From a virus (Duplodnaviria; Heunggongvirae; Uroviricota; Caudoviricetes): a stretch of DNA of 14,733 nucleotides. The position numbers and the translations under genes were made by a program. Below the pieces are notes generated by a model. That model had not been told where the DNA came from. It searched no databases and saw only the letters and a list, made by a program, of their open reading frames with translations. The DNA lies in IMG/VR virus record IMGVR_UViG_2778261529_000003. The stretch is one strand, 5' to 3'. The first letter of the stretch is position 1. Every line of letters starts with the position of its first letter. Shown here in pieces: positions 1-9,171 of the stretch.

Positions 1-1254
1 ATGCTGGAACAAATGGGCATTGCCGCGAAGCAAGCCTCGTATAAATTAGCGCAACTCTCCAGCCGCGAAAAAAATCGCGTGCTGGAAAAAATCGCCGATG
101 AACTGGAAGCACAAAGCGAAATCATCCTCAACGCTAACGCCCAGGATGTTGCTGACGCGCGTGCCAATGGCCTTGGCGAAGCGATGCTTGACCGTCTGGC
201 ACTGACGCCCGCACGGCTGAAAGGCATTGCCGATGATGTGCGCCAGGTGTGTAACCTCGCCGATCCGGTGGGGCAGGTAATCGATGGCAGCGTACTGGAC
301 AGCGGCCTGCGTCTTGAGCGTCGTCGCGTACCGCTGGGGGTTATTGGCGTGATTTATGAAGCGCGCCCGAACGTGACGGTTGATGTCGCTTCGCTGTGCC
401 TGAAAACCGGTAATGCGGTGATCCTGCGCGGTGGCAAAGAAACGTGTCGCACTAACGCTGCAACGGTGGCGGTGATTCAGGACGCCCTGAAATCCTGCGG
501 CTTACCGGCGGGTGCCGTGCAGGCGATTGATAATCCTGACCGTGCGCTGGTCAGTGAAATGCTGCGTATGGATAAATACATCGACATGCTGATCCCGCGT
601 GGTGGCGCTGGTTTGCATAAACTGTGCCGTGAACAGTCGACAATCCCGGTGATCACAGGTGGTATAGGCGTATGCCATATTTACGTTGATGAAAGTGTAG
701 AGATCGCTGAAGCATTAAAAGTGATCGTCAACGCGAAAACTCAGCGTCCGAGCACATGTAATACGGTTGAAACGTTGCTGGTGAATAAAAACATCGCCGA
801 TAGCTTCCTGCCCGCATTAAGCAAACAAATGGCGGAAAGCGGCGTGACATTACACGCAGATGCAGCTGCACTGGCGCAGTTGCAGGCAGGCCCTGCGAAG
901 GTGGTTGCTGTTAAAGCCGAAGAGTATGACGATGAGTTTCTGTCATTAGATTTGAACGTCAAAATCGTCAGCGATCTTGACGATGCCATCGCCCATATTC
1001 GTGAACACGGCACACAACACTCCGATGCGATCCTGACCCGCGATATGCGCAACGCCCAGCGTTTTGTTAACGAAGTGGATTCGTCCGCTGTTTACGTTAA
1101 CGCCTCTACGCGTTTTACCGACGGCGGCCAGTTTGGTCTGGGTGCGGAAGTGGCGGTAAGCACACAAAAACTCCACGCGCGTGGCCCAATGGGGCTGGAA
1201 GCACTGACCACTTACAAGTGGATCGGCATTGGTGATTACACCATTCGTGCGTAA
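1..1254 (+). CDS. proA: gamma-glutamyl phosphate reductase (glutamate-5-semialdehyde dehydrogenase)
   Basis: 417-aa ORF, ATG at 1, TAA at 1252-1254. Translation is recognisable as enterobacterial ProA with host-like composition. The minus-strand ORFs inside it are antisense artefacts. Confidence 0.95.
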
Positions 1255-1368: not shown

Positions 1369-1444
1369 GCCGATATAGCTCAGTTGGTAGAGCAGCGCAT
1401 TCGTAATGCGAAGGTCGTAGGTTCGACTCCTATTATCGGCACCA
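1369..1444 (+). tRNA. thrW: tRNA-Thr (anticodon CGU), 76 nt including CCA
   Basis: GCCGATA acceptor stem paired with TATCGGC, D-arm GCTCAGTTGGTAGAGC, anticodon loop TTCGTAA (anticodon CGT), T-arm GGTTCGACTCC, 3' CCA at 1442-1444. It lies directly downstream of proA as in E. coli. Confidence 0.93.
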
Positions 1445-1610: not shown

Positions 1611-2825
1611 GTGAAACTCAATGCCCGTCAAATAGACACTGCCAAGCCAAAAGAGAAGGCTTACAAGCTGGCTGATGGTGGTGGTCTGTATCTCTTGGTA
1701 AAACCTAGTGGAGGAAAATATTGGCGCTTCAAGTATCGTGTAGCTGGTAAAGAGAAGCTGTTAGCACTAGGTGTGTATCCTGAAGTTACCTTGGCTGATG
1801 CTCGTGCAAAACGTGAAGAAGCTAAAAGGGGTATCGCTGGGGGTATCGATCCGATGGAAGCGAAACGAGAGGAAAAGATTGCCCGGGAAACGCAGTTAAA
1901 CAACACCTTCAAAGATATTGCCCTTGAGTGGCACAGCAGCAAATTAAAAAAATGGTCTGCTGGTTATGCTTCAGACATCCTCGAAGCCTTTAACAAAGAT
2001 GTGTTCCCTTACATTGGCAAAAAACCAATCGCCGAAATCAAACCACTTGAACTGCTGAATGTGCTGCGGCGCATCGAGGGGCGCGGTGCTACCGAAAAAG
2101 CCAAAAAAGTGAGGCAGCGATGTGGGGAAGTTTTCCGCTATGCAATTGTCACTGGACGTGCTGAGTATAACCCTGCACCGGATCTCACCAGCGCGATGCA
2201 AGGTCATGAATCTAATCATTATCCTTTCCTCACAGCCAAAGAATTACCTGATTTTTTCAAGGCATTGTCCAGTTACTCAGGAAGTGCATTGGTTGTTATG
2301 GCGGCTCGTTTACTGATTATCACCGGTTTGCGGACTGGCGAACTGCGCGGTGCATTATGGGATGAAATCGATCTCAACAAGGCTATCTGGGAGATACCTG
2401 CTTCACGGATGAAAATGCGTCGCCCTCATGTAGTGCCTTTGTCTGAGCAGGCTCTTTCGCTTATTGGGCAGATTAAAGAACTAACTGGCAATTATCCGCT
2501 TATGTTTCCCGGCCGTAATGATCCAAGGAAAACAATGAGCGAGGCTAGCATAAACCAAGTATTTAAACGCATCGGCTATAACGGAAAGGTTACTGGTCAT
2601 GGCTTCCGGCACACTATGAGCACCATTTTGCATGAGCAGGGCTATAACACCGCGTGGATAGAGACACAGCTTGCGCACGTCGATAAAAACTCAATTCGTG
2701 GCACATACAACCATGCGCAATATCTGGATGGGCGGCGGGAAATGCTTCAGTGGTACGCTGATTATATGGATTCGCTCGAGCATGGCGGAAATGTGGTGCA
2801 TGGTGAGTTCGGAAAATGCGGGTGA
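1611..2825 (+). CDS. int: tyrosine site-specific integrase, P4-type (tRNA-targeting)
   Basis: 404-aa ORF with GTG start and GGAGG 10 nt upstream. N-terminus (LNARQIDTAKPKEKAYKLADGGGLYLLVKPSGGKYWRFKYR) is typical of P4-family integrases. C-terminal catalytic region has R..HGFRHT and a tyrosine near the end. Position is adjacent to the tRNA. Confidence 0.9.
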   Translation: MKLNARQIDTAKPKEKAYKLADGGGLYLLVKPSGGKYWRFKYRVAGKEKLLALGVYPEVTLADARAKREEAKRGIAGGIDPMEAKREEKIARETQLNNTFKDIALEWHSSKLKKWSAGYASDILEAFNKDVFPYIGKKPIAEIKPLELLNVLRRIEGRGATEKAKKVRQRCGEVFRYAIVTGRAEYNPAPDLTSAMQGHESNHYPFLTAKELPDFFKALSSYSGSALVVMAARLLIITGLRTGELRGALWDEIDLNKAIWEIPASRMKMRRPHVVPLSEQALSLIGQIKELTGNYPLMFPGRNDPRKTMSEASINQVFKRIGYNGKVTGHGFRHTMSTILHEQGYNTAWIETQLAHVDKNSIRGTYNHAQYLDGRREMLQWYADYMDSLEHGGNVVHGEFGKCG

Positions 2826-2953
2826 CTGGTTGAGTATACAGTAGTAGACTTTGAGCGACGAAAGAAAAGGCTGTGTCTAGGGTCGCTCCCGAAAATCCGT
2901 ACACCTCGACGGACTGGTACAGCCACTACAGTAGAGGACGCTGAGGTGTGCGT

Positions 2954-3751
2954 ATGATTGATATTCATGCCGAATTAAACGAATACAAAAAAGATTTTAT
3001 TTCTTTACGTGAATTTCTTGAGGTCGTGCTTAAGGTCGCTGGTGATGATTATGATGTTTCAGATGTCATAACTTGGATACTCAGGAGAATAAGCGGAGAA
3101 CATATCCGCCTGTACACAGTAAATGAATTTAAGCTGTTGGAATCTTTTTGTAACCCGTATCGGGATGAATTTGATAATGATGTTCTTTATAGAAATCTGA
3201 ATGCGGTTCGGAAACGTGGTTGTTTACCTGGTGAGAGGGATGAAAATGGTTTTCTGGTGTCCGGTTATTGGGAAGATCCCGAATTTGAGAACATTGGATT
3301 TATAAGGGGTGAAATTTTCGCAATTTTTCCCGATGTCCTTGACGCGTTAACGAAGCTGGAAGGCGCTAACTCTTCTGAAAATGACGAGGCACAAGGACGC
3401 GATATTGAAAAGAAAGAGTTGCGTACAGAGGATGATTTATTATCCCAAATCGCAATGCTGGAAAAAGAAAACGCAGAGTTAAGGGCAAGGATAGAGCAGT
3501 TAGAGCAAGAGCGCCCGATACACTTATATAAATACTGGGATAAAGACCCATTAGCTAAGGCTATTGAGATTAGAAACAGAGAGTGGGCCAATTACGATCC
3601 AGAAAATGATTTTGCCACCAGGGGAAATCAAGAAGCGATAACCAGGGAGCTTAAGCAGTGGGGGGCAAGTAATGCACTTGCAACGCTCATAGAGAGGACT
3701 GCCTGCCCTATTAACCGAGACAACAGCCAAAAGAACGCAAAGCCGGATTAA
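2954..3751 (+). CDS. hypothetical protein, AT-rich orphan with C-terminal coiled-coil
   Basis: 265-aa ORF (ATG 2954, GAGG 7 nt upstream, TAA 3749-3751). GC is markedly lower than its neighbours. Predicted coiled-coil segment LLSQIAMLEKENAELRARIEQLEQE. No family recognised by eye. Confidence 0.6.
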   Translation: MIDIHAELNEYKKDFISLREFLEVVLKVAGDDYDVSDVITWILRRISGEHIRLYTVNEFKLLESFCNPYRDEFDNDVLYRNLNAVRKRGCLPGERDENGFLVSGYWEDPEFENIGFIRGEIFAIFPDVLDALTKLEGANSSENDEAQGRDIEKKELRTEDDLLSQIAMLEKENAELRARIEQLEQERPIHLYKYWDKDPLAKAIEIRNREWANYDPENDFATRGNQEAITRELKQWGASNALATLIERTACPINRDNSQKNAKPD

Positions 3752-3766
3752 CGCACCATACCGCAT

Positions 3767-3910
3767 ACCCTGAGGGTGATTTACTGTTACCCTGAGGGTA
3801 TTTTTTTATCTTCCCCGTCAATTTTACCATCACCCTTAGGGTAGATTTCCTCCCGATTACCATCACCCTTAGGGTAGATTTCCTTCCGGTAACCATTAGG
3901 CCTGAGGGTA
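3767..3910. repeat. array of five CC(C)TNAGGG palindromic sites including a 26-bp direct repeat (3825-3850 and 3858-3883)
   Basis: ACCCTGAGGGT at 3767-3777 and 3789-3799; TACCATCACCCTTAGGGTAGATTTCC twice, 33 bp apart; CCTGAGGG at 3901-3908. Lies in the intergenic region upstream of alpA. Confidence 0.7.
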
Positions 3911-3978
3911 TGAAAATATTCGTTATTTCTGTGCCATGATTACCTCGTCAAATTGAGTAGACGTTATGAGGTAAATAT

Positions 3979-4176
3979 ATGTCAAATACGCTTATTCGTT
4001 TAACAGAAGTTCAGCGTAGAACTGGATATAGCAAGGCATGGATTTATCGCCTTATGGGGCAAGGTAAATTTCCTGCATCAGTTAAAATTGGCTCGCGAGC
4101 TATTGCTTTCGTTGAGAGTGAAATTGACGAGTGGATTAATCAGCGTATTGCGGAATCACGCGGAACAGCTACCTGA
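3979..4176 (+). CDS. alpA: AlpA/Vis-family phage transcriptional regulator (excisionase-like HTH)
   Basis: 65-aa ORF, ATG 3979 with GAGG 7 nt upstream. Sequence RTGYSKAWIYRLMGQGKFPASVKIGSRAIAFVESEIDEWINQR matches the AlpA/prophage CP4-57 regulatory-protein pattern. Confidence 0.85.
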   Translation: MSNTLIRLTEVQRRTGYSKAWIYRLMGQGKFPASVKIGSRAIAFVESEIDEWINQRIAESRGTAT

Positions 4177-4253
4177 TTAAATGGCTACGGGGCTATTGCC
4201 CCCAGCTATCCACCAGCAAATAAAAGTAACTTAATTCGATAGCAGGAGTTTTT

Positions 4254-5054
4254 ATGAAATTTCCAAAAACGCCCGTACAGGGGCGGGGCTTCGTTCGGCC
4301 TGAAAACCAGAATCTGCAAAATTTCGGCGAAATTATCCCGGTTATTTCCGGCATTATTGGCGGGTGTGAAACCAATATTGTTAGCGCCAGAGCGTTGCAT
4401 AAGGCGTTAGGTGTAGGTCGCGTTTTCCGTTCGTGGATCAAGGGGCGCATTGAAGAATACGGCTTCACGGAAGGCGTGGATTATGAGGTTGTTGAATATT
4501 TGAGCCGACCCGATCCGGTGAGCGCAAAATCTCGCCAGCAAACAGCTCTTGAGTACATCATTACCGTGAACATGGCAAAAGAACTGGCGATGGTCGAACG
4601 CACCGAACAGGGCCGCGCCGTTCGCCAGTACTTCATCAAATGCGAGGAGGAGCTACACAAGGTAGCGCCAGTGCGTTCCGCAGCTTTACGCCGGGAACTG
4701 AAAGCCCGTATCACCGTTGCCAGCTACTTTAAGCCAATGTGTGCCGCGCTGGAGGCGTACCGGGCTGAACTGGGTAAAAACACGCTCCAGCACCATTACA
4801 CCACGGAAGCCAATATGCTGGCGCGTATCGTGCTGGGTGGCATGACTGCAAAACAGTGGGCGCAGGCGAACGGCATCACAGGCGAACCACGCGACCACAT
4901 GAGCACATTGCAGCTTGAGCACCTTTCTTACCTTGAGCAGAGCAATATCACGCTGATTGAGTTAGGCCAGGACTACCACCAGCGGAAAGCTGAATTAATT
5001 CGTCTTTCGCAGCGTTGGTTAGCCCGTCGCATGGAGGAAAACAGCCATGTGTAA
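4254..5054 (+). CDS. phage antirepressor-like protein (AntA-type N-terminal domain)
   Basis: 266-aa ORF, ATG 4254 with AGGAG upstream. N-terminal ISARALHKALGVGRVFRSWIKGRIEEYGFTEGVDYEV resembles the AntA/AntB antirepressor domain. Confidence 0.7.
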   Translation: MKFPKTPVQGRGFVRPENQNLQNFGEIIPVISGIIGGCETNIVSARALHKALGVGRVFRSWIKGRIEEYGFTEGVDYEVVEYLSRPDPVSAKSRQQTALEYIITVNMAKELAMVERTEQGRAVRQYFIKCEEELHKVAPVRSAALRRELKARITVASYFKPMCAALEAYRAELGKNTLQHHYTTEANMLARIVLGGMTAKQWAQANGITGEPRDHMSTLQLEHLSYLEQSNITLIELGQDYHQRKAELIRLSQRWLARRMEENSHV

Positions 5055-5720
5055 CGCTCTGACCGTTACAAAAAGAGAAAGCGCCCCGTTGCCGGAGCGC
5101 CTTTGTGAACAAATCGCTTACTGCGCCATATTGTTTACTGCCTTTCGGGCAGATTATAGCGTTGTGGTCGCACAGAGTGAAGGCGCTGATCACTGTTACT
5201 ACAGTACGCCAGAAATGCAGAATATTTTGCTGCAAAATGCCGTTAGCCACGCTGTCCGGAAAGCAAAAAATTTTGCTGGTGGCGCGACTGATGCGATTTT
5301 GTCAGGTCACCAGGTGCTGATCAATCTGATGTCTGATTTCGTTCTGGATAAAACAAAGGCGACTGCAGAGGGCCACCAGTGGGAAAGCTACACACTTGAA
5401 CACATTGCCAACAATGCCAGATTTGCGGCTGGTGGGCAATGTGATCAGTGTGCTGGCTTGCTGGTGGGCTATTCATGCTCTTTAACATTGCCATGCCGCG
5501 ATGTTTTCCAGGTATGCGATCCCATTTTTGTGCGCCTGTACTCTTTAAGGAATTGCTCAAGGGCAAAAGCACATGGCGCGAATCTTTCTGATTCATGCTC
5601 TATCTTTCTGCGCCGTCTTTTCCGTGCCGGTGATGGTGTATTGGTTGATTCTTTGTTGGTCATTCTGTGTACCTGTAAAGCAATGCGCCGGAGTTCCTCA
5701 CACCACGGCGATGATAGTTA

Positions 5721-5900
5721 TTATTCTGATTCTTTGGCCTTGCGGCGCTGGCGGCGTTTGATCTCGCCTTTTGCGGCAGTAACTAAAAAACCAGCGGTAC
5801 TTTCGCCAGGTTCTTTAAGTTGCTCAATATCATCCATTACTTCATGTGGGATTCTGACAGTTGTCATTTGTGATTTTGCGTTTTTTGCACCAGTTGCCAT
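5721..5900 (-). CDS. small ribbon-helix-helix (Arc/MetJ/CopG-like) DNA-binding protein, candidate island repressor
   Basis: 59-aa ORF from the internal ATG of the 5721..6077 minus ORF, with AGGAG 9 nt upstream. MATGAKNAKSQMTTVRIPHEVMDDIEQLKEPGESTAGFLVTAAKGEIKRRQRRKAKESE has a beta-strand then two helices, the RHH pattern. Transcribed divergently from the replication operon. Confidence 0.6.
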   Translation of the reverse strand: MATGAKNAKSQMTTVRIPHEVMDDIEQLKEPGESTAGFLVTAAKGEIKRRQRRKAKESE

Positions 5901-5966
5901 TTCTGGATCTCCTAAAAATTGGTGTATGTCAGTATACGCAAAAAAAATGATAAAAAAAGGCTTGAA

Positions 5967-6012
5967 GTGTATTTCACCAGTGAGTAAATTAAAAAGCAAA
6001 GGTGAAATACAC
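5967..6012. promoter_or_regulatory. perfect 12-bp inverted repeat GTGTATTTCACC (21-bp spacer) GGTGAAATACAC, candidate operator in the divergent intergenic region
   Basis: Read directly. Located between the RHH gene start (5900) and the first rightward small ORF (6094), flanked by A-tracts. Confidence 0.5.
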
Positions 6013-6093
6013 CTAAAAGAGCAACGCCCCGCAGTGCTCGCAACACATGCAGGGCGTCTAACCACCAACGATAGCAAGAGTATCGAGGTAGCT

Positions 6094-6297
6094 ATGGGAA
6101 ATCATACCACACACCCGCAAGGGCGGGACTCGCACAACCTGAATAAATACATCTGGCGTTTTATCGCCCTGAGCACGGCACAACCGCGCGTAATTCACAT
6201 CGAGGCCATCAGCGAACAGGAAGCACGCCAGCAATCTCCTGATGGCTGTGTGATGGTATTCGCCGCCCGTATTCGTCAGGGGGTAAGCCATGCATAA
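6094..6297 (+). CDS. hypothetical small protein (67 aa)
   Basis: ATG 6094 with GAGG upstream. Ends in SHA-stop with the 8-nt overlap junction CATGCATAA onto the next gene. This is the terminal segment of the long 5047..6297 frame, so the start is uncertain. Confidence 0.35.
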   Translation: MGNHTTHPQGRDSHNLNKYIWRFIALSTAQPRVIHIEAISEQEARQQSPDGCVMVFAARIRQGVSHA

Positions 6298-6655
6298 CCT
6301 GTCAATTTCTGACCTTAACAGCATTCAGTTTGACGAGAAATTTACCGGGCAGTTGCTGGTCAATGTGGAGAACGGGCGCATAGTGCGTAATTACCACCTG
6401 CCGGATGGTGCAATTGCCGGAAGCGTTGAAGCATTGCTGGAACTGGCGGAACGTGCGCGACTGATTAAGCCGTCAACGAGCCATCACGATGATGATCTGC
6501 ATTTTACCGGGCGTATGGTGAGTCACTACGAAAACGGCGTTGAAGTATCCCGCGAACGGCTGCGTGATGATTGCTGTTTCGGCACACTGCCGGAATTTAT
6601 CGAGTTGCTGACCAGTTGCGGTTATCAGGTCATTCAGGGGGGTGAACATGCGTGA
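6290..6655 (+). CDS. hypothetical protein (121 aa), paralogous N-terminus to 6874..7074
   Basis: ATG 6290. N-terminus MHN...FTGQLLV resembles MHN...FTGRVLV of the 6874 gene. Ends EHA-stop overlapping the next ATG (CATGCGTGA). Confidence 0.6.
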   Translation: MHNLSISDLNSIQFDEKFTGQLLVNVENGRIVRNYHLPDGAIAGSVEALLELAERARLIKPSTSHHDDDLHFTGRMVSHYENGVEVSRERLRDDCCFGTLPEFIELLTSCGYQVIQGGEHA

Positions 6656-6881
6656 TGATCGTTTTAATTCCCTGAAACGGGAGTTTGATGGCGCACCGGA
6701 AGATACATCGGGCGCATTGTTGAGCGTTGCTGACATGATGAAAGCTGCATGTTTTCTTATCAATACCAATGGCTACAAGTCAGAGGGTGAAATGATTCTT
6801 AGTATTGCGTCGGACTATGCGGAATATGTGGCAGAGACGCGTTACAGAAGAAAATTCACGGAGGATGTAAGTCATGCATAA
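6648..6881 (+). CDS. hypothetical small protein (77 aa)
   Basis: ATG 6648 (the track's GTG 6642 is less likely). Ends SHA-stop with junction CATGCATAA identical to that at 6289-6297. Confidence 0.5.
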   Translation: MRDDRFNSLKREFDGAPEDTSGALLSVADMMKAACFLINTNGYKSEGEMILSIASDYAEYVAETRYRRKFTEDVSHA

Positions 6882-7074
6882 TCATGAAGCGCATGTACCC
6901 GTAGCGCTTAATGTGCCAGATGATTTCACCGGACGCGTACTGGTTTACCTGGATAAAGGGAAAGTGAAATCACAATGCCGACTGAAAAGTAATGAGATTG
7001 TTGGTTCTCCTGAATTTTTTTCTGAACTCTGTATTCGTGCGGAAATAAAACCGGAACTGCTGACAGGAATATAA
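6874..7074 (+). CDS. hypothetical small protein (66 aa), paralog of the 6290..6655 N-terminal region
   Basis: ATG 6874 with GGAGG 8 nt upstream. Shared MHN / FTG-R/Q-LV / IKP motifs with the 6290 product. Confidence 0.55.
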   Translation: MHNHEAHVPVALNVPDDFTGRVLVYLDKGKVKSQCRLKSNEIVGSPEFFSELCIRAEIKPELLTGI

Positions 7075-7078
7075 AACC

Positions 7079-7369
7079 ATGAAAAAGAAAAATTCTGGCT
7101 TTACTGCCAGCGGTCTCTCTCGGCCTGAAATCAGACACGGAGATATTTACCGCGACACCAGACGTGGGGGACGAGTGGTTATTCGTCACGTTACGCCAGG
7201 CAATATCACCTACCGCCGTGAGGCTTACGAATATGACTGTGTAATGCCGCGCCGTCAGTTTGAGCGTGATTTTATTCTGGTTGAAAACAAACAACAGGCG
7301 GTGGCGAGACGTGCAGCCACGAATATTAAAAAAATCCGGGCAATGTTGGTTGCGGGAGGTAAGAAGTGA
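7079..7369 (+). CDS. hypothetical basic protein (96 aa)
   Basis: ATG 7079. Stop TGA overlaps the GTG start of the downstream replication gene (GTGA), indicating the same operon. Confidence 0.5.
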   Translation: MKKKNSGFTASGLSRPEIRHGDIYRDTRRGGRVVIRHVTPGNITYRREAYEYDCVMPRRQFERDFILVENKQQAVARRAATNIKKIRAMLVAGGKK

Positions 7370-9171
7370 AAAACGCACCGAATTTAAAATATCAGCCGAA
7401 GGATAAATTCACCGAGGTAATCATTTTGGCCGGGACGGATGCTTACGCCCATGCTCAACACTGGATTGAAAGCGAAGGACGAAAACACGGCGATAACGTA
7501 CCACCTGTTTACCTGGGGCCGAAGCAACTGGCAGACCTGGCGAATATCCGCATTATTGACGAGAAACGCCGCTTTGCGCGTGTCTATCTTGCGGGGGAGA
7601 TCGAGCCAATCCAGATCAATGCTATCGCTGAAAAACTGGCGCTGGCTGGCGTACAGGACGCGAAATTATACAAAGGTATCACCGATCGGGAGCCGGAAAA
7701 CTGGCGCGACTACCTGCAACGGATCCGCGAACAGGCAGAGAGTGGGGAAGTTTCGGCGATGAAATTAGCCACAAAAAATATTGACCTACCCAGGCCAGCA
7801 CTAAATCAGATGGGAGCCAGCCAGAGAGGGGAAGTGTTACTTGAATATTATGGAAGAGCACTGGCTATAAATGATGATTCTGATGTAGTTCACCATTACA
7901 ACGGAATTGTCTGGGTGCCTGTATCTGATAAGGAACTCCAGCGGTCTATGGCGAAGATTTTTATTGATGCTGGAATCAGTTATTCGCAAAACGCCATTAA
8001 ATTTGCCGTAGACACAATGAAATTGAGCCTGCCTGTTATGGGCGGGGCTGACAGGAATCTTATTGGATTCAGTAACGGGGTATTTGATACCAGGACAGGA
8101 AATTTTCGGGAGCACAACAAAAATGACTGGTTGTTAAATGCCAGTGAATTACCGTTCAGCCCACCAGCAGAGGGGGAAACGCTGGCAACACATGCGCCGA
8201 ATTTCTGGAAGTGGTTGCGTCGTTCGGTGGCAGATAATGATCGTAAAGCTGATCGCGTACTGGCGGCATTATTCATGGTACTGGCGAACCGGTACGACTG
8301 GCAGTTATTCCTTGAGGTAACTGGCCCAGGCGGAAGCGGTAAAAGTGTGATGGCGGAGATTTGTACCATGCTGGCTGGTAAGGCCAACACAGTATCGGCA
8401 AGCATGAAGGCGCTGGAAGACGCAAGGGAACGCGCGTTAGTCGTTGGCTTTTCGCTGATTATCATGCCGGATATGGCCCGCTACGCTGGAGATGGTGCAG
8501 GAATTAAGGCAATTACTGGCGGCGACAAGGTGGCAATCGACCCGAAACATAAAGCCCCCTACTCCACACGTATTCCGGCGGTAGTGCTGGCAGTAAACAA
8601 TAACGCCATGTCATTCAGTGATCGCAGTGGAGGGATCTCGCGTCGTAGGGTGATATTTAATTTCTCTGAGGTCGTACCGGAGAACGAACGCGATCCCATG
8701 CTGGTGGAAAAAATAGAAGGCGAACTGGCGGTAGTGATTCGCCACCTGCTTACTCGTTTTTCTGACCAGGATGAAGCCAGACGTCTGTTATATGAGCAGC
8801 AGAAATCAGAAGAGGCACTGGTGATAAAACGCGAGGGTGATTCACTGGTGGACTTTTGCGGCTATCTGATGTCGTTGGTTAAATGTGAAGGAATGATGGT
8901 GGGCAATGCGGAAATAGTGCCATTTAGCCCGAGGCGGTACCTGTATCATGCTTATTTAGCCTATATGTCAGCGCATGGCCTGGGAAAACCAGTATCACTG
9001 ACACGCTTTGGTACAGATATGCCAGGAGCTATGGCGGAATACGGAAAGGAGTATAAGCGGGCTAAATGCACTAAAGGCCAGGATAAAGGGCGAGTGATAA
9101 CAAATGTTCTGTTAGATGATGATGCTGATGGTTGGTTGCCAGCAGCAACAGGGATTAACGACAGAACATAA
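7366..9171 (+). CDS. replication initiator: D5_N domain plus SF3 helicase (P4 alpha C-terminal-like primase/helicase family)
   Basis: 601-aa ORF, GTG start with GGAGG upstream. Walker A GPGGSGKS; D5_N-like segment NGVFDTRTGNFREHNKNDW. Followed immediately by an iteron array. Confidence 0.88.
   Translation: MKNAPNLKYQPKDKFTEVIILAGTDAYAHAQHWIESEGRKHGDNVPPVYLGPKQLADLANIRIIDEKRRFARVYLAGEIEPIQINAIAEKLALAGVQDAKLYKGITDREPENWRDYLQRIREQAESGEVSAMKLATKNIDLPRPALNQMGASQRGEVLLEYYGRALAINDDSDVVHHYNGIVWVPVSDKELQRSMAKIFIDAGISYSQNAIKFAVDTMKLSLPVMGGADRNLIGFSNGVFDTRTGNFREHNKNDWLLNASELPFSPPAEGETLATHAPNFWKWLRRSVADNDRKADRVLAALFMVLANRYDWQLFLEVTGPGGSGKSVMAEICTMLAGKANTVSASMKALEDARERALVVGFSLIIMPDMARYAGDGAGIKAITGGDKVAIDPKHKAPYSTRIPAVVLAVNNNAMSFSDRSGGISRRRVIFNFSEVVPENERDPMLVEKIEGELAVVIRHLLTRFSDQDEARRLLYEQQKSEEALVIKREGDSLVDFCGYLMSLVKCEGMMVGNAEIVPFSPRRYLYHAYLAYMSAHGLGKPVSLTRFGTDMPGAMAEYGKEYKRAKCTKGQDKGRVITNVLLDDDADGWLPAATGINDRT

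Follow-up and report, generated by a model that had tools for sequence, protein, structure and literature searches.

Why should the small genes of a satellite's early operon be chained so that each start codon lies inside the end of the gene before it, and what kind of gene is the longest of the series? The question is raised by IMGVR_UViG_2778261529_000003, a 14,733-nucleotide (nt) IMG/VR record assigned to the Caudoviricetes ("the window", by which we mean this whole stretch), in which four consecutive 8-nt overlaps link the genes between an antirepressor gene, antA, and a primase/helicase gene. The first overlap opens a frame at 5047 that runs without a stop codon across an antisense gene and a promoter region to the end of a small gene resembling the Icd and Kil genes of other phages. 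What starts at 5047 is no ordinary protein gene. Its frame, by analogy with phage P4, probably acts as a ribosome relay, through which read-through transcripts would stay translated and avoid termination by Rho.

The overlap junctions and their conservation

All four junctions described in an earlier note on this DNA were found at the positions it gave. At the first (5046..5054, + strand, CATGTGTAA), the ORF that starts with ATG at 5047 shares 8 nt with the end of antA, including its stop, and GGAGG lies 9 nt upstream; this junction recurs in every one of the 32 other distinct loci with the same AntA. The remaining three, on the same strand, are at 6289..6297 (CATGCATAA), 6647..6655 (CATGCGTGA) and 6873..6881 (CATGCATAA again). 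At each of the four, an open reading frame (ORF) of at least 67 codons stops and another of at least 66 codons begins with ATG. In a locus 99.8% identical to the window, the RefSeq/PGAP annotation calls genes of 121, 77 and 66 amino acids (aa) overlapping by 8 nt, which correspond to the last three junctions. The upstream products do end in His-X (SHV, SHA, EHA and SHA), because the overlap reads xAT-Gxx-stop in the upstream frame. The MHN start common to the 6290 and 6874 products is likewise largely forced, since the junction reads ATG-CAT-AAY.

The junction motif as such is not above chance: both strands of the window contain 7 matches, compared with 5.0 ± 2.5 in shuffles. The signal is one of position and conservation, not motif count. 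For related loci we examined 80 IMG/VR loci and genome loci, and a scan of genome contigs with the Icd-like protein gave only 4 loci. The pattern is conserved in these related islands, where the chains from icd to the primase gene provide 102 distinct junction contexts. The most numerous class is the 8-nt overlap (42 contexts), and other overlaps are 19 of 4 nt, largely between a DUF4222 gene and the primase gene, 8 of 11 nt and 3 of 14 nt. The 42 8-nt overlaps carry a GGAGG or GGGGG Shine-Dalgarno (SD) sequence 6-8 nt upstream, and in the relatives the 8-nt junction takes the form CAGG(A/G)GGT-N4-5-ATG-NN-T(A/G)A.

A design that combines an SD at a set spacing with a start/stop overlap plausibly fits translational coupling, as the earlier note had proposed. 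Systems coupled by termination-reinitiation likewise consist of co-directional overlapping genes with the SD inside the upstream gene, but studies of them centre on 4-nt and 1-nt overlaps (PMC6728339, PMC10666635), whereas the 8-nt class (phase 1) predominates here. Among prokaryotes generally, 4-nt and 1-nt overlaps dominate, with approximately 45% and 15% of overlaps, respectively (PMC3887535). The overlaps might instead be neutral by-products of compaction in a mobile element, with nothing depending on coupling, but we think this unlikely. Neutral compaction is in keeping with the chance-level motif count, with the commonness of short overlaps in prokaryotes (PMC3887535) and with an SD for every downstream gene. 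It does not readily account for 8-nt overlaps at a set SD spacing in 42 of 102 contexts, kept through cassette swaps, when the usual classes are 4 and 1 nt, and it cannot explain why the 5047 frame is free of stops.

The stop-free frame at 5047

The ORF of 416 codons at 5047..6297 (+), which we call eta-like for reasons given below, begins on the antA stop, and its last 67 codons are the icd-like gene. Between these ends, and in the same frame as the icd-like gene, it passes antisense through a ylcI-family gene and across the early promoter region; from 5900 to 6094 the DNA is AT-rich and intergenic, and the frame is open throughout. We use "bridge" for the stretch of this frame that follows the antA stop. 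Of 37 distinct bridges, 573-1575 nt long, 35 are divisible by three in length and contain zero stops in the 5047 frame, while the other two + frames contain 8-34 stops and the three - frames 4-23. The intergenic region between ylcI and icd behaves in the same way: 13 of 15 sequence clusters, one from Klebsiella pneumoniae, are stop-free in the icd frame, and the other + frames hold 3-13 stops. Where the upstream gene is one other than antA, the long ORF still starts at its stop or close to it.

It is quite unlikely, in our estimation, that the frame is open for the sake of its product, that is, that 5047..6297 encodes a genuine protein of the kind named "host cell division inhibitor Icd-like protein" at NCBI. 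An identical 416-aa product of 5047..6297 is held by NCBI, the databases contain more than 2000 relatives of 400-530 aa, and the Eta protein of P4 belongs to a Pfam family, Phage_ASH. The ratio of nonsynonymous to synonymous polymorphism (pN/pS) in the bridge, however, is 0.70 (5047-5325) and 0.65 (5326-5718), and no frame stands out as clearly constrained. Moreover, the ORF lies antisense to a recognised gene and runs through AT-rich promoter DNA, different alleles, non-homologous promoter alleles among them, encode unrelated peptides, and covariation in an RNA hairpin overrides the amino acid sequence. Searches of Pfam, PHROG and NCBIfam matched nothing in the 416-aa ORF outside its Icd part, and Phage_ASH (PF10554) gave no match in it at E <= 1.

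The part of the frame that does encode a conserved protein is its end. The Icd/Kil-like gene (6094..6297, +, 67 aa) has its own SD (GAGG) and ATG, and its product matches NF033153 (phage_ICD_like, 4e-19), phrog_6196 and phrog_1743, the last of which it has in common with P4 Kil. Its pN/pS is 0.27, and the values for the other called genes are 0.21 for antA, 0.21 for A2, 0.43 for B and 0.27 for A1. Because pN/pS in these called frames is 0.21-0.43, as against 0.75 to 3.4 and mostly above 1 in the other frames (excluding the antisense frame with common third positions), we conclude that antA, icd, A2, B and A1 are real genes, with purifying selection on the last four.

Approximately 35 nt upstream of the icd-like ATG, inside the eta-like frame, lies a leader RNA hairpin (6024..6057, +). 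Across 17 alleles, 8 of its 13 pairs show compensatory changes, and 84% of cells are paired, compared with 31-45% when the structure is slid. None of 500 shuffles attains the observed values, and the fold z-score is -3.2. The compensatory changes alter the encoded amino acids while the frame remains open. On the 3' side of the hairpin is an invariant C-rich stretch, CTAACCACCAACGATAGC, followed by the SD. The hairpin matches no Rfam family, and no complement to it of at least 9 nt occurs in 4900..7400; in place of a P4-type C4 RNA, it may serve in immunity or processing. An Rfam scan of 5000..7400 gave chance-level matches only, and neither C4 nor isrK RNA was found in the window or in the related loci L001 and L006, in a search that detects both in P4 and EcCIMP1. 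Just upstream of the hairpin, a 17-nt inverted repeat with 88% complementarity (5962..5978 and 6001..6017) brackets a weak -35/-10-like pair read by eye, and we take the repeat for a candidate operator that YlcI or some other repressor might bind, and the pair for a candidate early promoter. In a profile of the operon from 3.9 to 9.3 kb, an excess of C over G of the kind seen at rut sites appears only at 6000-6300.

The antisense gene itself (ylcI/ynfO family, 5721..5900, -, 59 aa) matches NCBIfam NF041551 (9e-18) and phrog_949. It is divergent from the early operon and embedded within the eta-like ORF; RefSeq relatives annotate it and leave 5055..5720 without annotation. A strong intrinsic-terminator-like hairpin with an 11-base-pair stem and a T run (5078..5103, -) is oriented for leftward, ylcI-side transcripts and lies inside the eta-like ORF just past the antA stop. 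The peptide encoded over it (KRESAPLPERL) recurs in the translated bridges of relatives with at most one substitution. Downstream of ylcI there is also a leftward 64-aa ORF (5469..5663, -; MTNKESTNTPSPARKRRRRK...), partly conserved in L001 (53 aa), whose pN/pS gave no clear sign of coding.

The A2, B and A1 cassettes

The genes beyond the eta-like ORF are A2 (6290..6655, +, 121 aa), B (6648..6881, +, 77 aa) and A1 (6874..7074, +, 66 aa). The proposed paralogy of the 6290 and 6874 products holds up: A2 and A1 align with 34% identity (BLASTP E 5e-8). A1 is matched by the C-terminal half of A2 as well (E 1e-4), there is similarity between the two halves of A2 (E 4e-6), and phrog_340 matches A2 in two stretches (4.6e-30) and A1 (3.5e-20). 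These alignments and matches indicate one domain of approximately 60 aa in three copies, two in tandem in A2 and one in A1. A hidden Markov model of the domain collects 109 representative proteins at 50% identity, mostly of 60-100 aa. When compared with the C-terminal 43 residues of Rem from E. coli K-12, the A-domain profile scored an hhalign probability of 95% (E 3.4e-8), and a relative fused to Bro-N has a precomputed match to the Pfam family "Rem" (PF27490); our local Pfam scans produced no PF27490 match for the A proteins, which were not scored against it directly. Rem (b1561) is encoded in the Qin prophage as a single 83-aa protein of a lambdoid late-regulatory region, whereas the window carries an array of Rem-like copies in an early operon. 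To our knowledge, no function has been assigned to Rem, and the relationship therefore supplies no mechanism. A distant Rem-like member is present at 3635..4904 of locus L090, in a prophage early operon beside CI-like repressor genes; the overlaps in its small-gene chain are of 4, 8, 14, 11 and 4 nt.

The AlphaFold2 model of A1, built with the family alignment, has a predicted local distance difference test score (pLDDT) of 89 and consists of a beta-hairpin followed by a helix. A fold search with this model returned nothing at E <= 0.001 in PDB or BFVD, and a sequence search of PDB with the A profile matched only spurious designed repeats. The single-sequence prediction for A2 (pLDDT 36) was unusable. 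MORN_2 repeat proteins matched the A profile weakly, which we took as resemblance between beta-hairpins and not as homology. B matches phrog_24341 (2e-46). A2, B and A1 have no match in Pfam, NCBIfam or PADLOC, and tblastn of A2 against deposited phage genomes found none. The statement in the earlier note that no function is known for these genes goes too far for the first gene, which has the eta/kil layout and includes a Kil/Icd homolog at 6094..6297.

Relatives vary in the stretch between icd and DUF4222. The commonest order is Icd, X74, A2, B, A1, from which the window differs by having no X74; further orders are Icd, A2, A1; Icd, A1; Icd, X74-like, B, A1; and Icd, X74, A2, B followed by another gene. 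Since the orders differ among relatives, the cassettes move independently. A possible means is visible at the Icd/A2 junction of the L041 type, which consists of the left half of an Icd/X74 junction and the right half of an X74/A2 junction, joined in a common CAGGAGGTG. This is the product that deletion of X74 by recombination at the linkers would be expected to leave. One protein in the collection, P0024, is a hybrid of A2 and A1.

The SD of gene B in the window is a poly-G tract of six residues (6637..6642, +). Relatives have anything from G5 to G10 at the A2/B junction, and G8 to G11 at the X74-like/B junction. G6 and G9 yield the 8-nt overlap, G7 and G10 place the stop 2 nt before the ATG, and G5 and G8 fuse A2 and B in frame. 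The length variation may reflect either true slippage or homopolymer error in sequencing and assembly. One could argue from these data that the junctions are frameshift or fusion sites, at which slippage joins A2 and B and the separate genes are secondary. We judge this very unlikely, even though the G5 and G8 forms give in-frame fusions of 202-203 aa and A2 and B each match one half of phrog_2512: 37 loci have G6 with separate ORFs, B has an ATG and SD of its own, homopolymers are absent from the other junctions, PGAP treats the fusion as a pseudogene, and homopolymer lengths are prone to sequencing error.

The proposal in the earlier note that a two-gene unit (an upstream gene plus an A gene) was duplicated is extremely improbable, for although CATGCATAA occurs twice within approximately 15 nt of common context and both upstream products end in VSHA, the upstream partners, B (the 6648 product) and the Icd-like protein, share no similarity, the gene before A1 is Icd, A2 or B depending on the relative, and the common tail comes from the SD/overlap linker. 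What the two junctions share is this linker of about 15 nt (GTAAG[C/T]CATGCATAA) and not two genes.

Relation to known satellites and the proposed relay

Several lines of comparison lead to the left operon of P4, which has the order vis, eta/kil (with the cI RNA), epsilon, orf151, alpha. In P4, as in the window, a long ORF begins on the stop of an upstream regulatory gene, crosses the early promoter and ends in a Kil/Icd-like gene with its own start, and small genes chained by 8-nt overlaps then lead to a P4-family primase. On the P4 reference sequence, the overlap of the vis (orf88) stop with ATGATGATG, the triple ATG that opens eta, is 4 nt, while that of antA with the eta-like ORF is 8 nt; eta has 199 codons, of which the last 65 are kil. 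The kil/epsilon (CGTGCGTAA) and epsilon/orf151 (CATGTTTGA) junctions are both 8-nt overlaps, as in the window. Background work on P4 established that kil is the terminal part of eta (Forti et al. 1999, J Bacteriol 181:5225, summarised in PMC10111431), and that translation of eta prevents termination, which lets transcription from the late promoter further upstream continue through (Forti et al. 1999, via PMC10111431). Judged from sequence and layout, the ORF at 5047..6297 corresponds to P4 eta with its nested kil, and Kil and the Icd-like protein of the window are homologous.

The two systems differ in content. P4 Eta (3.8e-23) and the ash product of the island EcCIMP1 (1.2e-28) match Phage_ASH, unlike the long ORF of the window; the window has neither the C4 (CI) nor the isrK (seqA) RNA and contains the embedded antisense ylcI; and the Rem-like A cassettes and the B cassette occupy the place of the unrelated epsilon and orf151. 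The consensus of the P4 epsilon family starts with MHN and ends with HV. Homology of A with epsilon was ruled out, as BLASTP found nothing and the hhalign profile-profile probability was 0.2%, and the epsilon family (PF25738) has no match among the scanned window proteins. The strict gene set of P4-like satellites comprises epsilon, sid, delta and psu. The last three were not seen in the part of the island that the window holds, the island running past the window's end.

A second likeness is to the immI regions of P1 and P7, in which, in work attributed to Biere, Citron and Schuster (1992), a c4 RNA is followed by icd and ant, and translation of icd is reportedly needed for transcription of ant. 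There too, translation of an Icd-like leader ORF would license downstream transcription. The window differs in having no C4 RNA and in that its ant-family gene is upstream of icd, not downstream.

The relay would work as follows. antA, the eta-like ORF, A2, B and A1 are chained by 8-nt overlaps, so that a ribosome would meet the next start 5 nt before reaching the stop, with each SD lying within the final codons of the preceding gene. On transcripts made from the local early promoter, translation would begin at the icd-like ATG at 6094. A second kind of transcript, helper-induced and reading through from alpA and antA, would also feed the operon, and such transcripts would stay translated because ribosomes restart at 5047 and encounter no stop until 6297. 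At the 8-nt junctions the ribosomes would be passed on to A2, B and A1, with the DUF4222 and primase genes close behind. Continuous translation would block Rho-dependent termination, and the small genes and the primase gene would therefore be transcribed. The linkers (SD-ATG-NN-stop) would double as microhomologies for the gain, loss and swap of X74, A2, B and A1, and A2 and A1 are small Rem-like proteins at the place of epsilon, the helper-derepression protein of P4. The two-transcript and Rho steps of this scheme are carried over from P4; the junctions and their conservation, the selection on icd, A2, B and A1 and the almost always stop-free frame, with its nearly neutral amino acid change, are direct observations on the window and its relatives.

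Several facts weigh against the relay. With an SD of its own, each downstream gene could be translated independently of the gene upstream. Two of the 37 bridges (L037 and L058) and two promoter-region clusters (L047 and L053) do carry stops, and the related loci are mosaic relatives of one another and not independent samples. A consensus scan at its threshold found no early promoter between ylcI and icd. Any RNA polymerase crossing ylcI from antA would run into leftward transcription, and the hairpin at 5078..5103 sits in the path of antA read-through, though its T run is on the other strand. Finally, the ash ORF of EcCIMP1 (L088 23469..24184) is out of frame with icd; a continuous ash-icd ORF was looked for in EcCIMP1 and not found, and PGAP flags this ash as incomplete.

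EcCIMP1 (L088, from E. coli MP1) is of interest since it occupies the same proA/tRNA-Thr site as the island in the window and also has chains of 8-nt and 4-nt overlaps, but it differs in carrying ash, C4, isrK, a TOPRIM/DUF927 primase and differently annotated small genes. It is a functional phage-inducible chromosomal island (PICI) for which helper-dependent induction, excision and packaging have been shown, with AlpA as the helper-induced master regulator (PMC11773190). The PICIs of Gram-negative hosts are organised into Integration, Bro, Replication and Late zones (PMC10111431; EcCICFT073-type, PMC6092414). The window shows the same plan. It starts with proA (1..1254) and tRNA-Thr(CGT) (1369..1444), followed by a tyrosine integrase gene (1611..2825; Pfam Phage_integrase), an int-alpA RNA of Rfam (2870..2937, 45.5 bits, also present in L001) between the integrase gene and the next ORF (2948..3751, of unknown kind), alpA (3979..4176; Phage_AlpA) and the antA/antB-family antirepressor gene of the Bro zone (4254..5054, +; Pfam AntA, 2.4e-23). 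A DUF4222 gene (7079..7369, +; Pfam DUF4222, 1.4e-19) begins 4 nt past the A1 stop, and the GTG start of the P4-family primase/helicase gene (7366..9171, +; D5_N, DUF5906, Pox_D5; TIGR01613) overlaps its stop by 4 nt (GTGA), placing the small genes, as the earlier note had it, in an early operon ahead of the replication gene. ORFs beyond the primase match ProQ (ProQ/FinO), PerC, DUF2213 and HTH_17 only.

As in PICIs, int, the int-alpA RNA, alpA, antA, the primase gene, ProQ/FinO, PerC and late genes all point rightward at a tRNA. The co-orientation of int, alpA and primase, with a Bro-zone gene in between, at tRNA-Thr beside proA is the arrangement by which PICIs are recognised. By its gene content, the window is a Gram-negative PICI-type satellite at proA/tRNA-Thr, and the region analysed is its Bro-to-replication segment, which is matched in approximately one third of complete E. 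coli genomes. Between one relative and another, the primase bodies are 41 to 99% identical. The N-terminus of the replicase (approximately 129 residues, window 7366..7750) is 93% identical to L001 9590..9976, from which this N-terminal module appears to have been exchanged between replicase types. Despite this common N-terminus, the body of the L001 replicase is a RepA-family helicase and not of the D5/primase type.

P4 and PICIs already provide examples of the design described here. The novelty lies in a version without the Ash/C4 module that nonetheless has the stop-free frame and an array of Rem-like paralogs. Annotations of this DNA differ, some giving a 416-aa "Icd-like protein" and others one of 67-123 aa, and the choice bears on how ylcI is treated. 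The Ash domain and C4 have been replaced while the open frame was kept, and the frame, not the protein, therefore looks like the object of selection. A bolder and less likely reading is that selection acts on translation itself: a stop-free frame of up to approximately 600 codons, encoding a nearly unconstrained peptide and crossing non-homologous regulatory DNA as well as, in antisense, a repressor-like gene, would bridge helper-induced transcription to the replication operon, and the linkers would serve as a plug-in system for Rem-like cassettes directed against different helpers. An array of such cassettes at the helper-derepression position of P4 makes them candidate factors in the interaction of satellite and helper. 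If the relay is true, it would extend the principle of P4 eta, translation as an anti-termination device, to a widespread family of E. coli satellites.

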